NCBI RefSeq assembly: GCF_988243305.1
Contig: NZ_OZ547136.1
Length of the DNA: 64,000 bases
Direction: 5' to 3' (one strand)
The notes below the pieces were generated by a model. That model was not told where the DNA came from and ran no database searches. It saw only the letters and a program-made list of their open reading frames with translations. Both the position numbers and the translations under genes were made by a program. Positions 32,448-40,113 of this stretch are shown here, one piece after another (position 1 is the stretch's first letter; each line of letters begins with the position of its first letter).

Positions 32448-34345
<1,898 letters not shown>

Positions 34346-34379
34346 TCATTCCAAAAAGTTAAGGACGTGGCTTGTCAGA

Positions 34380-34515
34380 CGACGGATGAAGCAAGAGACG
34401 ATCGCCGCAAAGGCGATGCGATAGCAGATTAACTCTTGTTCCCTTCGCAGGTATTAGCCTGATCAGGTTCCGCGGATCCCGAATAAACGGTCTCAGCCAG
34501 TTAAGGCACTCCGAC
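34380..34515 (-). promoter_or_regulatory. TPP riboswitch (thi-box) in thiC leader
   Basis: Minus-strand leader upstream of thiC contains conserved CUGAGA (plus-strand TCTCAG at ~34491) within ...GGGAUCCGCGGAACCUGAUCAGGCUAAUACCUGCGAAGGGAACAAG; boundaries approximate. Confidence 0.7.
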
Positions 34516-34575
34516 AAGAAATTAGCCCCCACAAACGGGGCGTTGAATGTAAATTACGCGTTAACAGCGCAGAAC

Positions 34576-35052
34576 TCAAGCAGGATGTTTGACGCGGGCG
34601 GCGTCAAGCACCAGCAGAATCAGCTTATCTTCCAGCACAAAGCGCGCTTCCAGCGCCTCGCCGATGTCAGATAAAACCTGTTGAAACTCAAGGTAATTAT
34701 CATGATCGATGGCGGTTTCCAGGCTGGAATCGTAGTAATCCATAATCTGTTGGGTATTGGCTTCGAGTTGCGGCCAAATCTTCGCGGCGCGCGCGAGTTG
34801 CCCGTTGCCTTCCAGCTTATGAAGAATGCGCTCATAAATACTGAAATGCCCGGCAGACAAGTAATCGACCAGGCTCTGACAAAAATCATCAAGGGCTTTT
34901 TCGTTTAGCCTCATGTACGATTCTTTGCCAGGCTTAATGCCAACCAGATTGTAGTAAGCCACGAGCAGATGCTTACGTACATGTAGCCAGCGATCAACCA
35001 GTTTGTTACTTCCTCTGACGCGCTCCGTCAGGTTATCGAGCTGGTTAAGCAT
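34576..35052 (-). CDS. rsd: Rsd, regulator of sigma D (anti-sigma70), 158 aa
   Basis: ORF track; recognised product. Confidence 0.9.
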   Translation of the reverse strand: MLNQLDNLTERVRGSNKLVDRWLHVRKHLLVAYYNLVGIKPGKESYMRLNEKALDDFCQSLVDYLSAGHFSIYERILHKLEGNGQLARAAKIWPQLEANTQQIMDYYDSSLETAIDHDNYLEFQQVLSDIGEALEARFVLEDKLILLVLDAARVKHPA

Positions 35053-35146
35053 GATTGACTCCGCAAGTTTGTATTCAAAAACTGCTCAGTGAGAAATGTA
35101 AAAACCATGTTAAACATGCCAGTGATGCAAAGGTAGTGCAAGAGCT

Positions 35147-35920
35147 ATGGATCGTATAATTGAAAAATTAGATCACGGCTGGTGGGTCGTCAGCCATGAA
35201 CAAAAATTATGGTTGCCGAAGGGAGAATTGCCATATGGCGAAGCGGCAAATTTCGATCTTGTGGGTCAGCGCGCACTACAAATCGGCGAATGGCAGGGGG
35301 AACCTGTTTGGTTAATACAACAGCAGCGTCGTCACGATATGGGGTCGGTACGTCAGGTCATTGATCTCGATGTTGGGCTGTTTCAACTGGCCGGACGTGG
35401 CGTGCAACTGGCGGAGTTTTACCGATCGCATAAATACTGTGGTTACTGCGGGCATGAAATGTATCCAAGCAAAACCGAATGGGCGATGCTGTGCAGCCAT
35501 TGCCGTGAGCGTTACTACCCGCAAATCGCCCCCTGCATTATTGTTGCCATCCGTCGCGATGATTCGATCCTCCTTGCCCAGCATACCCGCCATCGCAACG
35601 GTGTCCATACGGTACTTGCCGGATTCGTCGAAGTGGGCGAAACCCTCGAGCAGGCGGTCGCGCGGGAAGTGATGGAAGAGAGCGGAATTAAAGTTAAAAA
35701 CTTGCGTTATGTGACTTCCCAGCCGTGGCCGTTTCCTCAGTCTTTAATGACCGCGTTTATGGCGGAATATGACAGCGGCGAGATCGTTATCGACCCGAAA
35801 GAATTGCTCGAGGCGAACTGGTATCGCTATGACGATTTGCCGTTACTCCCGCCGCCCGGCACCGTAGCGCGCCGTCTGATAGAAGATACGGTGGCGATGT
35901 GTCGGGCAGAGTATGAGTGA
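35147..35920 (+). CDS. nudC: NADH pyrophosphatase NudC (Nudix), 257 aa
   Basis: ORF track; Nudix box [22 protein letters not shown]; zinc-binding Cys pairs. Confidence 0.9.
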
Positions 35921-35959
35921 TGATACACTGACCGCCTGACGCACTAAGGAACAGCCAAA

Positions 35960-37024
35960 ATGACCGAACTTAAAAACGATCGTTATCTGCGGGCGCTGCT
36001 GCGCCAGCCCGTTGATGTCACTCCAGTATGGATGATGCGCCAGGCGGGTCGCTATCTACCGGAATATAAAGCCACGCGCGCCCAGGCGGGCGATTTTATG
36101 TCGCTGTGCAAAAACGCCGAGCTGGCGTGCGAAGTGACTTTGCAACCGCTGCGCCGCTACCCGCTGGATGCGGCGATCCTCTTTTCCGATATCCTCACCG
36201 TGCCGGACGCGATGGGGTTAGGGCTCTATTTTGAAGCCGGAGAAGGTCCGCGTTTTACCTCGCCAGTCACCTGCAAAGCTGACGTCGATAAACTGCCAAT
36301 TCCGGACCCGGAAGATGAGCTGGGTTACGTGATGAACGTGGTGCGTACCATTCGTCGCGAACTGAAAGGCGAAGTGCCGCTGATTGGTTTTTCCGGCAGC
36401 CCGTGGACGCTGGCGACCTACATGGTGGAAGGCGGCAGCAGCAAAGCGTTCACCGTGATCAAAAAAATGATGTATGCCGATCCGCAGGCGCTGCACGCTC
36501 TGCTCGATAAACTGGCGAAAAGCGTCACTCTGTATCTGAATGCGCAGATTAAAGCCGGTGCTCAGGCAGTGATGATTTTCGACACCTGGGGCGGTGTGCT
36601 TACCGGGCGCGATTATCAACAGTTCTCGCTCTATTACATGCATAAAATTGTTGATGGTTTACTGCGTGAAAACGACGGTCGCCGCGTACCGGTCACGCTG
36701 TTTACCAAAGGCGGCGGACAGTGGCTGGAAGCGATGGCAGAAACCGGTTGCGATGCGCTGGGCCTCGACTGGACAACGGACATCGCCGATGCGCGCCGCC
36801 GCGTGGGCAATAAAGTCGCGTTGCAGGGCAATATGGATCCGTCGATGCTGTACGCGCCGCCAGCCCGCATTGAAGAAGAAGTAGCGACTATACTTGCAGG
36901 TTTCGGTCACGGTGAAGGTCATGTCTTTAACCTTGGTCACGGCATTCATCAGGATGTGCCGCCAGAACATGCTGGCGTGTTTGTGGAGGCAGTGCATCGG
37001 TTATCTGAACAGTATCACCGCTAA
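35960..37024 (+). CDS. hemE: Uroporphyrinogen decarboxylase HemE, 354 aa
   Basis: ORF track; [36 protein letters not shown]... Confidence 0.9.
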
Positions 37025-37025
37025 G

Positions 37026-37167
37026 AGCCTGGTCCATCAGGCTATTTTATTTGCCATTTTGAGGCCGGACAGCGCGGAAAAACCGGAGCGTACACGTAGT
37101 ACGTGAGGATTTTGAGCACTGCCCGGCCTCAAACTGCCTTCAACAATTACGCCTGGTGGACCAGGCT
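37026..37167. mobile_element. 142-bp MITE-like palindromic element: 17-bp terminal inverted repeats (AGCCTGGTCCAYCAGGC) flanked by 5-bp direct repeats CTAAG (37021-37025 and 37168-37172)
   Basis: Seen in sequence: left end AGCCTGGTCCATCAGGC, reverse complement of right end AGCCTGGTCCACCAGGC (16/17); internal 11-bp perfect inverted repeat TTTGAGGCCGG / CCGGCCTCAAA and central palindrome CACGTA-G-TACGTG; no coding capacity. Confidence 0.55.
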
Positions 37168-37180
37168 CTAAGGAGCGATT

Positions 37181-37852
37181 ATGGATCTCGCGTCATTACG
37201 CGCTCAACAAATTGAACTGGCTTCTTCTGTGATCCGCGAGGATCGACTCGATAAAGATCCGCCGGATCTGATCGCCGGAGCCGATGTCGGGTTTGAGCAG
37301 GGCGGAGAAGTGACGCGAGCGGCGATGGTGCTGCTGAAATACCCCTCGCTTGAGCTGGTGGAGTATAAAGTGGCCCGCATCGCCACCACCATGCCTTACA
37401 TTCCAGGTTTTCTCTCCTTCCGCGAATATCCTGCGCTGCTGGCAGCGTGGGAGATGCTGTCGCAAAAGCCGGATTTAGTGTTTGTCGATGGTCACGGGAT
37501 CTCGCATCCTCGCCGTCTTGGCGTCGCCAGCCACTTTGGTTTGCTGGTGGATGTGCCAACGATAGGCGTGGCGAAAAAACGGCTCTGCGGTAAATTCGAA
37601 CCGCTCTCCAGTGAACCGGGCGCGCTGGCACCGCTGATGGATAAAGGCGAGCAGCTGGCCTGGGTCTGGCGCAGCAAAGCGCGCTGTAACCCGTTGTTTA
37701 TCGCTACCGGCCATCGGGTCAGCGTAGACAGCGCGCTGGCGTGGGTACAACGCTGCATGAAAGGCTATCGTCTGCCGGAGCCAACGCGCTGGGCGGACGC
37801 GGTGGCCTCGGAACGTCCGGCGTTCGTGCGCTATACAGCAAATCAGCCCTAA
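37181..37852 (+). CDS. nfi: Endonuclease V (deoxyinosine 3' endonuclease), 223 aa
   Basis: ORF track; recognised product; RBS AAGGAG 7 nt upstream. Confidence 0.9.
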
Positions 37853-37894
37853 TTCAGGTAAACTGCGGATAATTTCCGTATTTGAGAACTCAAC

Positions 37895-38485
37895 ATGTTA
37901 CAAAACCCAATTCATCTGCGTCTGGAGCGCCTGGAAAGCTGGCAGCACGTCACTTTTATGGCCTGCTTATGCGAACGCATGTACCCTAATTACGCCGTAT
38001 TCTGTCAGCAAACTGGTTTTGGTGATGGGCAGATTTACCGCCGCATTCTCGATCTCATCTGGGAAACGCTGACCGTCAAAGACGCAAAAGTAAATTTCGA
38101 CAGCCAACTGGAGAAATTTGAAGAAGCGATTCCTTCAGCCGACGATTTCGATCTGTACGGCGTTTATCCGGCAATCGATGCATGCGTGGCGTTAAGTGAA
38201 CTGGTCCATTCGCGTTTGAGTGGTGAAACGCTCGAACACGCGGTGGAAGTGAGTAAGACCTCCATCACGACCGTTGCGATGCTGGAAATGACTCAGGCTG
38301 GTCGCGAAATGAGCGATGAAGAGCTCAAAGAAAACCCAGCTGTAGAGCAAGAATGGGACATTCAGTGGGAAATATTCCGACTTTTAGCTGAGTGCGAAGA
38401 ACGCGATATCGAGCTGATAAAAGGCCTTAGGGCAGACCTGCGTGAGGCGGGCGAGAGCAATATTGGTATAATTTTTCAGCAATAA
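37895..38485 (+). CDS. yjaG: YjaG (DUF416), 196 aa
   Basis: ORF track; conserved K-12 position. Confidence 0.8.
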   Translation: MLQNPIHLRLERLESWQHVTFMACLCERMYPNYAVFCQQTGFGDGQIYRRILDLIWETLTVKDAKVNFDSQLEKFEEAIPSADDFDLYGVYPAIDACVALSELVHSRLSGETLEHAVEVSKTSITTVAMLEMTQAGREMSDEELKENPAVEQEWDIQWEIFRLLAECEERDIELIKGLRADLREAGESNIGIIFQQ

Positions 38486-38671
38486 GACCAGAAAACGTGA
38501 TTTAACGCCTGATTTGTCGTACCTGGAGTCTTCCCTTTCGCCCCCCGTCTGGTCTACATTTGGGGGGCGAAAAAAAGTGGCTATCGGTGCGTGTATGCAG
38601 GAGAGTGCTATTCTGGCATTTCCGTCGCACTCGATGCTTAGCAAGCGATAAACACATTGTAAGGATAACTT

Positions 38672-38944
38672 ATGAACAAGACTCAACTGATTGATGTAAT
38701 TGCAGAGAAAGCAGAACTGTCCAAAACCCAGGCTAAAGCTGCTCTGGAGTCCACTCTGGCTGCAATTACTGAGTCTCTGAAAGAAGGCGATGCTGTACAA
38801 CTGGTTGGTTTCGGTACCTTCAAAGTGAACCACCGCGCTGAGCGTACTGGCCGCAACCCGCAGACCGGTAAAGAAATCAAAATTGCCGCAGCTAACGTGC
38901 CGGCATTTGTTTCTGGCAAGGCACTGAAAGACGCAGTTAAGTAA
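38672..38944 (+). CDS. hupA: DNA-binding protein HU-alpha, 90 aa
   Basis: ORF track; [90 protein letters not shown]. Confidence 0.95.
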
Positions 38945-38950
38945 GATTGC

Positions 38951-39652
38951 GTGGCAGTGAACAGTTTTAACGAAGGGGTGGTTTCACCCCTTTTGTCTTT
39001 CTGGCGTCGATCATTGATGCTGGCAGGCGCTCTGTTTCTCACTGCCTGTAGTCACAACTCTTCACTTCCTCCCTTTACCGCCAGTGGATTTGCTGAAGAC
39101 CAGGGCGCGGTACGCATCTGGCGAAAAGACAGCGGCGATAATGTGCATCTGCTTGCCGTGTTTAGCCCGTGGCGCAGTGGCGATACCACAACGCGAGAGT
39201 ATCGCTGGCAGGGCGATAACCTCACGCTCATCAATATCAATGTTTACAGCAAACCGCCGGTGAACATTCGCGCGCGTTTTGACGATCGCGGCGATCTGAG
39301 CTTTATGCAACGTGAATCCGATGGGGAAAAGCAGCAGCTTTCTAACGACCAAATCGATTTATACCGTTATCGTGCTGATCAGATCCGCCAGATTAGCGAT
39401 GCCTTACGTCAGGGGAGAGTCGTGCTGCGCCAGGGGCGCTGGCATGCGATGGAGCAGACTGTGACCACCTGCGAAGGGCAAACCATTAAACCTGATTTAG
39501 ATTCGCAGGCGATAGCGCATATCGAGCGCCGCCAGAGCCGCTCTTCTGTTGATGTCAGCGTGGCATGGCTGGAAGCGCCCGAAGGTTCGCAATTACTGTT
39601 GGTGGCAAACTCTGATTTCTGTCGCTGGCAACCCAACGAGAAAACGTTCTGA
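38951..39652 (+). CDS. yjaH: YjaH (DUF1481) putative lipoprotein, 233 aa (start uncertain; GTG at 38957 also possible)
   Basis: ORF track; lipobox-like LFLTAC near N-terminus. Confidence 0.75.
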   Translation: MAVNSFNEGVVSPLLSFWRRSLMLAGALFLTACSHNSSLPPFTASGFAEDQGAVRIWRKDSGDNVHLLAVFSPWRSGDTTTREYRWQGDNLTLININVYSKPPVNIRARFDDRGDLSFMQRESDGEKQQLSNDQIDLYRYRADQIRQISDALRQGRVVLRQGRWHAMEQTVTTCEGQTIKPDLDSQAIAHIERRQSRSSVDVSVAWLEAPEGSQLLLVANSDFCRWQPNEKTF

Positions 39653-39653
39653 T

Positions 39654-40079
39654 TTACCAGTGGCCCATACCCATATGACCGCCACCACCGCAGCCGCCGT
39701 AGCCCATGCCCATTCCGGCTCCGCGCGGAATACCCGCTTCAGCCATCGCAATATCCCGTTTCACCCGTAACTCATCTAACGACTGACGCAAAGCCTCCAT
39801 CTCTTTGGCGACCGCGTTAATTTTGCTGCTATCCGGTGGGTTCGCGGCTAACAGGGCATTGTATTCATAACGCTTCGTCACCAGTTGCTGTTGCAGTGCG
39901 CTGCTTTGAGCGTAAAAGTCATTATGGATTTTCTGCCACGCTGTTTGTTGTTCGCTGGTCAAGGGCGCGGCATTTTGTTGCCACATCCCGTGTCCGCCGT
40001 GAGCAAATACAGATGTCGATCCCATCGCCATTGCTGAAAGCGCCATCATCACCAGGGCAATTTTCGTGTTCCGTTTCAT
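39654..40079 (-). CDS. zraP: Zinc-resistance-associated periplasmic protein ZraP, 141 aa
   Basis: ORF track 39654..40220 trimmed to MKRNTKIALVMMALSAMAMG signal peptide; Gly/His/Met-rich C-terminus GMGMGYGGCGGGGHMGMGHW. Confidence 0.85.
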   Translation of the reverse strand: MKRNTKIALVMMALSAMAMGSTSVFAHGGHGMWQQNAAPLTSEQQTAWQKIHNDFYAQSSALQQQLVTKRYEYNALLAANPPDSSKINAVAKEMEALRQSLDELRVKRDIAMAEAGIPRGAGMGMGYGGCGGGGHMGMGHW

Positions 40080-40113
40080 GGTTAATCCTCCAGTGGTTGT
40101 CTTACTTTGGGTA

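Follow-up and report, generated by a model that had tools for sequence, protein, structure and literature searches.

What fills the space between hemE and nfi, and how did it come to be there? The question is raised by a stretch of 64,000 nucleotides from contig NZ_OZ547136.1 (NCBI RefSeq assembly GCF_988243305.1; hereafter the window). Judging from the open reading frames (ORFs) of the window and the annotation of matching genomes, the gene order nudC-hemE-nfi-yjaG-hupA around the spacer is that of the Escherichia coli cluster. The hemE ORF ends at position 37024 and the ATG of nfi locates at 37181, leaving a spacer of 156 bp that is nearly all one palindromic element. In our judgement the spacer is likely a copy of an RSA-like non-autonomous transposon, which entered at the hemE stop codon TAA, underwent inversion of its core later on one haplotype, and represents a near-neutral selfish insertion.

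Filled and empty sites between hemE and nfi

We searched 5426 complete E. coli genomes, a sample without the window strain, in which the best 8-kb match to the window is 99.1% identical. By megablast, the 142-bp unit at 37026–37167, as delimited in the initial annotation of this DNA, was detected in 314 genomes (~6%), and every inspected case lies at hemE-nfi. The junction of K-12 MG1655, caccgcTAAggagtgattATG, is free of the element and contains a 9-nt spacer with a single TAA, in agreement with the 8–9 bp that the initial annotation gave for K-12. Meanwhile, a synthetic empty site, in which the window flanks are joined via one TAAG, has a 100% match in strain CFSAN018748 and is also contiguous in typical E. 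coli strains. A distant blastn search revealed family copies with 70–75% identity in 5425 of the 5426 genomes, at a median of 6 places. The initial annotation had interpreted the unit as a transposable element and had staked this on the existence of empty sites and additional copies. Since K-12 and CFSAN018748 display the empty site and copies occur across the Enterobacterales, that interpretation survives.

The exact ends of the element emerge from a comparison in which both ends of 56 copies, 47 of them with distinct flanks, were aligned outside-to-inside. The consensus of the ends is Y-T-W-A-G-A-G-C-C-T-R-T-C-C-C-A-T-Y-A-G-G-C; that is, Y-TWA is followed by the terminal consensus GAGCCTRTCCCATYAGGC at both ends. 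Among the 47 distinct copies, the middle base of TWA is concordant between the left and right flanks in 37 and discordant in 3, and 25 carry an identical 3-bp duplication, where shuffling gives 14.8 ± 2.6 (at most 23 in 2000 shuffles). The outer C and G of the CTAAG motif are not duplicated in these copies. Either end retains the adjoining G in most copies (40/47 and 39/47) and the position outside TWA is merely Y-biased, so we attribute the former to the element terminus and the latter to target preference, and neither to duplication.

This comparison refines the initial annotation in two respects. A target-site duplication is indeed present, but it consists of 3 bp, the TAA that serves as the hemE stop codon, and not of the 5-bp CTAAG, which occurs at 37021–37025 and again at 37168–37172. 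The longer repeat is apparent because the target was C-TAA-G. The element therefore extends over 144 bp (37025–37168) instead of 142, as the left G and right C are its termini. The remaining anatomy is recovered at the positions first given: the 156-bp spacer, the 17-bp terminal repeats with 16 of 17 matches, the inner 11-bp repeat, the central palindrome and the CTAAG flanks. Each terminus is also a small palindrome. No complete ORF lies inside the element, as had been proposed; a 70-aa ORF (36894–37106) that begins within hemE, in an alternative frame, enters its first 82 bp. The Shine-Dalgarno motif of nfi, AAGGAG, is intact and regenerated by the duplicated sequence, also as proposed. The features are collected in Table 1.

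Table 1. Features of the hemE-nfi element in the window, followed by coordinates of related copies in other sequences.
Feature	Coordinates	Strand	Basis or remark
hemE stop codon TAA, left copy of the 3-bp target-site duplication	37022–37024	+	ORF end; single TAA in K-12 empty site; family-wide TWA
144-bp palindromic MITE-like element GAGCC…GGCTC, RSA-like family, 'B form' (inverted core)	37025–37168	.	Repeats, family profile, folds
Left terminal inverted repeat AGCCTGGTCCATCAGGC, itself a small palindrome AGCCTG…CAGGCT (37026–37043)	37026–37042	+	Alignment of 112 ends
Terminator-like motif right after the hemE stop: terminal-repeat hairpin (-9.3 kcal/mol), then ATTTTATTTG	37026–37053	+	Sequence/fold prediction
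Inner inverted repeat (11 bp, perfect), left arm TTTGAGGCCGG	37058–37068	+	Presumed crossover site of core inversion
54-bp core, inverted relative to the common form	37069–37122	.	Alignment to strains 7/2 and GMF065; family profiles
Central palindrome CGTAC-ACGTA-GTACG	37089–37103	+	Tip of long hairpin
Inner inverted repeat (11 bp, perfect), right arm CCGGCCTCAAA	37123–37133	+	
Right terminal inverted repeat GCCTGGTGGACCAGGCT	37151–37167	+	16/17 match to left repeat
Right TAA copy of the target-site duplication	37169–37171	+	
nfi Shine-Dalgarno AAGGAG, rebuilt from duplicated TAA and original flank	37170–37175	+	nfi ATG at 37181
Five family copies in MG1655	192639–192772; 1007684–1007822; 1798989–1799128; 2543645–2543783; 2689523–2689663		Profile built from E. 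coli copies
~200-bp subfamily copies	L071:11242–11440; L014:4325–4514; also L075, L077, L069, L033		

The family displays the hallmarks of a miniature inverted-repeat transposable element (MITE), which are terminal inverted repeats, a target-site duplication, a small non-coding multicopy unit, and both filled and empty sites. On the basis of its terminal repeats, duplication and lack of coding capacity, together with the empty sites, the view of the initial annotation that a non-autonomous transposable element sits inside the hemE-nfi operon holds. The hemE-nfi site and the family-wide ends give these repeats a clear transposon signature, GAG terminal inverted repeats and a TWA duplication. 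Within the IS5 family (IS427/IS1031 groups), IS1237 is bounded by inverted repeats of the GAG… type and generates TTA/TAA duplications (PMC2516522), and Harbinger elements make canonical 3-bp duplications (PMC12730594). The IS5-type combination of a 3-bp TNA/TWA duplication with GAG… termini is found in our family, which points to an IS5-family (IS427/IS1031-type) DDE transposase acting in trans.

The position on a stop codon is shared by other copies. Six of 39 copies coincide precisely with the stop codon of an ORF that is 100 codons or longer. In Citrobacter amalonaticus, a copy (L072:1485–1626) is placed exactly at the TAA stop of an ORF that resembles entC by eye, before the Shine-Dalgarno sequence of an entE-like ORF (TTAAGGAGCGATGATG). 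This junction, TAAGGAGCGAT, is of the same stop-codon/Shine-Dalgarno type as that at hemE-nfi. We also considered whether the copy might be the orthologue of the hemE-nfi one, and rejected this on the entC-like and entE-like appearance of the flanking ORFs.

The repeat family, its gain and its loss

The E. coli loci of the family are ucpA-cysP, pheM-pheS, qseE-qseG, pyrH-frr, rlmL-ycbX and, in some strains, glnA-glnL. In MG1655, we located five copies of 134–141 nt by profile coordinates (nhmmer E-values from 1e-42 to 1e-45), none of which carries an annotation. No further family copy was found within the 64-kb window. Beyond E. coli, we surveyed one genome per species with a conserved 18-mer as query, so the counts are lower bounds among the matches listed. 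At least 10 copies were found in C. amalonaticus, at least 10 in Enterobacter sp. JUb54 and at least 12 in Serratia symbiotica; copies also occur, among those matches, in Pantoea, Erwinia, Cedecea, Yersinia, Pectobacterium, Photorhabdus, Xenorhabdus, Kluyvera, Raoultella and Salmonella arizonae.

Three side observations were made in the course of this survey. A subfamily of ~200 bp in Citrobacter and Pectobacterium contains an extra core module of ~60 bp (…CACAAAACCCGGCAGCGTTTTGAACGCC…GGGTGAGCGTAGCGAAT). A 234-bp contig of Methylobacterium mesophilicum NBRC 15688 (L053) has a profile score and span identical to those of the K-12 ucpA-cysP copy (146.5 bits, positions 3–140), and is probably E. 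coli contamination in the assembly. In Serratia symbiotica (L132:500–700), the truncated right end of a family copy directly adjoins a sequence ending in …GCTTCAAGTATGACGGGTAT. This resembles what we take to be the end of an ERIC repeat, and the family copy and the ERIC-like repeat appear to be nested or adjacent.

Is this family a known one? An early K-12 GenBank record lists six RSA repeats of 150/151 bp, next to BoxC of 56 bp and IRU/ERIC of 127 bp (PMC5172473). RSA is equated with BEE95, dispersed enterobacterial intergenic elements, in a title cited in PMC3751351, and nineteen RSA-like repeats are reported in Salmonella (S. Typhimurium; PMC5604773). The dispersed intergenic occurrence in several enterobacterial genera, Salmonella included, is what we observe for the present family. 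Judged from its copy number, length and distribution, the family is most likely RSA (BEE95; 'RSA-like/SPED' in Salmonella), an assignment based on these three properties and not on a reference sequence. The spacer copy in the window thus belongs most likely to an already known low-copy enterobacterial repeat family, one that the initial annotation had not considered. RSA repeats have been in E. coli annotations since the 1990s. The RSA/BEE95/SPED literature that we found comprises one genome announcement, an entry in a table and the title of a cited work, and holds almost nothing on origin or role. A permissive scan of Rfam families gave as its best hit sX9 of Xanthomonas, which at 30.6 bits stays below its gathering score of 44, and further hits to miRNA-hairpin models, all of which we regard as chance matches to the hairpin.

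Other loci are polymorphic as well. The ucpA-cysP copy (in K-12, L004:2497–2635) is filled in 1387 of the 5426 genomes, and O157:H7 displays a clean empty site there (…GTC-TTA-TTCC…). In strain CB6886 (L143/L144), the same locus holds a 13-bp remnant, TTGAACCCGGTTC, which joins both extreme ends of the element, as a deletion between the copies of a 6-bp direct repeat would leave it. The glnA-glnL copy (in strain W2-5, L006:1494–1632; L145) is filled in 993 of the 5426 genomes and sits in the 3' untranslated region (3'UTR) of glnA. Filled and empty versions differ by 145 bp. Since their junction has no clean 3-bp duplication, we excluded this locus from the evidence for target duplication. From the polymorphism at hemE-nfi, ucpA-cysP and glnA-glnL, we conclude that, as far as these sequences indicate, the family is both gained and lost within E. 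coli. For annotation, one element family can explain the variable length of the hemE-nfi, ucpA-cysP and glnA 3'UTR regions of the species.

Several observations weigh against the reading of the spacer as an inserted RSA copy. On the side of its identity, no RSA feature label remains in the records examined, so that the name is not tied to a sequence, and five K-12 copies were located against the six listed for RSA. On the side of its mobility, no autonomous partner with matching termini was found in ~1 Mb of family-bearing loci; two orphan terminus-like matches were present there, and the perfect one is the truncated copy beside the ERIC-like repeat (L132). On the side of its history, hemE-nfi is also filled in Escherichia sp. 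MOD1-EC7003, a cryptic lineage, with the core in normal polarity, and near-identical nfi haplotypes exist both with and without the element. At ucpA-cysP, losses clearly occur. The polymorphism at hemE-nfi could accordingly reflect gain or loss.

These last points could also be read in favor of a different history, in which the ancestor of Escherichia already had the element at hemE-nfi and a precise deletion between the direct repeats on either side removed it from most E. coli. The filled site of the cryptic lineage would fit such a history, as would the divergence of ~1% among the filled haplotypes themselves and the close likeness across nfi-yjaG of one filled and one empty-site strain, which have 3 differences in 1.2 kb. 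The 13-bp ucpA-cysP remnant adds that family copies do undergo deletion between short direct repeats. We nevertheless regard ancestral presence followed by loss as unlikely, given that the family-wide TWA duplication indicates that copies arise via insertion, that the empty site is the exact pre-insertion sequence with one TAA, and that ~94% of E. coli are empty at this position.

The inverted core

The other carriers of the hemE-nfi copy are just 87.5% identical to the copy in the window by megablast. This low identity results from inversion of the core between two forms. In strains 7/2 and GMF065 the outer arms are identical to those of the window, and the 54 bp between the 11-bp repeats are the exact reverse complement. 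The conserved G·U positions of the inner stem, counted over the pairs of 58 copies, define the polarity of the core. We compared a normal and a core-flipped profile on ~100 family sites. The window-type copy alone prefers the flipped profile (142 versus 88 bits), and all the remaining sites favor the normal polarity by 12–63 bits, save one fragmentary match that ties. In the transcript of hemE-nfi, the window form has A·C mismatches in place of the G·U pairs, and the predicted fold has -89.2 kcal/mol, compared with -92.8 kcal/mol for the common form.

Besides the window, two of the 5426 genomes, CFIAFB20140388 and GF60, contain the flipped core. As the form is present in two independent complete genomes in addition to the window, an assembly artefact is ruled out as its source. 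The three sequences share one haplotype block of ~2.5 kb (~35.8–38.4 kb of the window) with 0–4 mutual differences, and this block differs from common-form haplotypes by 12–28 positions per 1.2 kb. The region 34000–40100 of the window is, in its own right, a recombination mosaic: outside 35.8–38.4 kb, it differs from CFIAFB20140388 and GF60 by 14–25 positions per ~1.7 kb.

We ask whether the core could instead be a programmed reversible DNA switch (inverton) that toggles RNA or DNA structure. Perfect inverted repeats flank the segment, and natural sequences with either orientation are found. Against a switch of this type, the flipped form is confined to the single haplotype just described, the other family copies have the opposite polarity apart from the one fragmentary tie, and no recombinase gene is found among the neighbors nudC, hemE, nfi, yjaG and hupA. 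Arms of 11 bp, moreover, lie in the range reported for spontaneous RecA-independent inversions. We therefore consider an inverton highly improbable. The occurrence on a single haplotype leads us to one inversion event: the sequences point to a one-off inversion between short repeats and not to a reversible switch.

Taken together, we propose the following course of events for the inserted RSA-like copy. A non-autonomous element bounded by terminal inverted repeats would enter a Y-TWA-R target and duplicate TWA, presumably mobilised in trans by an IS5-family (IS427/IS1031-type) DDE transposase. At the TAA of hemE, the insertion kept the stop codon on the left, and the second TAA with GGAG on the right rebuilds the ribosome-binding site of nfi. 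The insertion is now found in ~6% of E. coli and in the cryptic lineage of Escherichia. At a later time the 54-bp core flipped on one haplotype, probably via recombination or replication template-switching between the 11-bp arms, as in a hairpin-loop inversion. The insertion adds a predicted hairpin of ~144 nt to the hemE-nfi transcript and abolishes the tight 9-nt stop/start spacing. The element is most likely a near-neutral selfish insertion, causing at most partial termination or processing between hemE and nfi.

A broader proposal is tentative: possibly, though we lean against asserting it, RSA-type repeats form a still-dynamic MITE family of IS5/Harbinger type, whose Y-TWA-R targets are often stop codons beside Shine-Dalgarno sequences and whose cores can flip. 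If so, targets of the form TAAGGAG, a TAA stop with a Shine-Dalgarno sequence, would let copies enter operons without destroying either gene, and core flips, by swapping G·U pairs for A·C mismatches, could alter RNA processing in a strand-specific manner.

The hairpin, gene expression and known systems

The palindromic structure noted in the initial annotation is borne out by folding. The RNA of 37000–37195 folds with -89.2 kcal/mol (z = -7.75) and the DNA fold has z = -8.4, with none of 200 shuffles reaching this stability. Both values are far beyond chance. The long hairpin is kept across 58 distinct copies, in which 88.6% of pair cells are standard, compared with ~32% in slid controls, and 24 of the 50 hairpin pairs display changes on both sides. 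Pairing was counted here on the fold of the consensus sequence, as default RNAalifold on the 58 copies missed the long hairpin. The most conserved part of the family is the T-rich block ATTTTATTTG, which follows the hairpin of the left terminus. The Shine-Dalgarno sequence of nfi, although intact, lies at the base of the long stem in the RNA fold.

Such a structure might suggest that the element was recruited for a regulatory role of its RNA and is kept by selection, serving as a terminator or attenuator between the two cistrons or as a site of RNase III/E processing, and so uncoupling nfi from hemE. The very high stability of the hairpin, the small hairpin with its U-tract directly after the hemE stop, and the compensatory changes that preserve the hairpin across the family speak for this possibility. 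Likewise, ERIC and Correia elements in mRNAs are processed and alter transcript stability. The compensatory changes, however, may also reflect subfamily master copies. Moreover, the family copies are oriented both ways relative to transcription (three in the same orientation, three opposite and one between divergent genes), and some lie inside operons that must be read through, qseE-qseG-glrR and pheMST. The two orientations and the operon-internal copies argue against a strong polar effect, and ~94% of E. coli live without the hemE-nfi element.

The one experimental analogue comes from glnA. The O111-type glnA 3'UTR has 230 nt and the O157 type 85 nt; K-12 engineered to carry the O111-type 3'UTR expressed and processed the small RNA, and its levels of GlnA and NtrC changed negligibly (PMC9731577). 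By length, the glnA-glnL family copy corresponds to the O111-type region, as the 145-bp difference fits 230 versus 85 nt. The same study describes the O111-type GlnZ region differently, as a 98-nt insertion with AGGUUCAAA repeats (PMC9731577). We also examined the 'REP insertion' of K-12 GlnZ as a candidate family copy and rejected it, since the K-12 glnZ region has no family match and it is the O111-type 3'UTR that carries the copy. By analogy with the negligible effect at glnA, which also speaks against a regulatory role, the hemE-nfi insertion is probably near-neutral for expression, and any effect on nfi would probably be small. A co-opted regulatory RNA thus appears quite improbable to us, and we retain the near-neutral selfish insertion.

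The hemE-nfi copy is a curiosity and not a new kind of system, as the comparison with known ones illustrates. To our knowledge, no core micro-inversion has been described for RSA repeats. The flipped core is a natural example of micro-inversion between 11-bp inverted repeats and reveals no new biological system. It resembles hairpin-loop micro-inversions, in which the loop or core of a stem-loop bounded by short perfect inverted repeats is likewise flipped exactly; unlike other such cases, the one in the window is located inside a bacterial MITE, and the same mechanism presumably applies.

RSA repeats have the same palindromic intergenic form of ~140–150 bp, number around six in an E. coli genome, and are present in Salmonella and other enterobacteria. 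The element in the window is homologous to the K-12 copies at ucpA-cysP, pheM-pheS, qseG-glrK, pyrH-frr and ycbX-rlmL, from which it differs in that it occupies a locus empty in K-12 and has its 54-bp core inverted. More generally, ERIC/IRU and Correia (CREE) elements are also small palindromic repeats bounded by terminal inverted repeats, which reside in intergenic or intercistronic DNA, where they are transcribed with the neighboring genes and fold into long RNA hairpins. In sequence the present family appears unrelated to them, and its Rfam hits were all sub-threshold. ERIC/IRU, compared here by description only, differs from RSA in length and number (127 bp and 19 K-12 copies versus 150/151 bp and 6 copies; PMC5172473). 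In comparison with MITEs of the IS5 family (IS427/IS1031; eukaryotic relatives PIF/Harbinger-Tourist), our family has the same TWA duplication and GAG termini. No transposase-bearing relative with such termini was found for the present family in the ~1 Mb of loci searched, and a descent from an IS5-family element is suggested by the shared duplication and ends.

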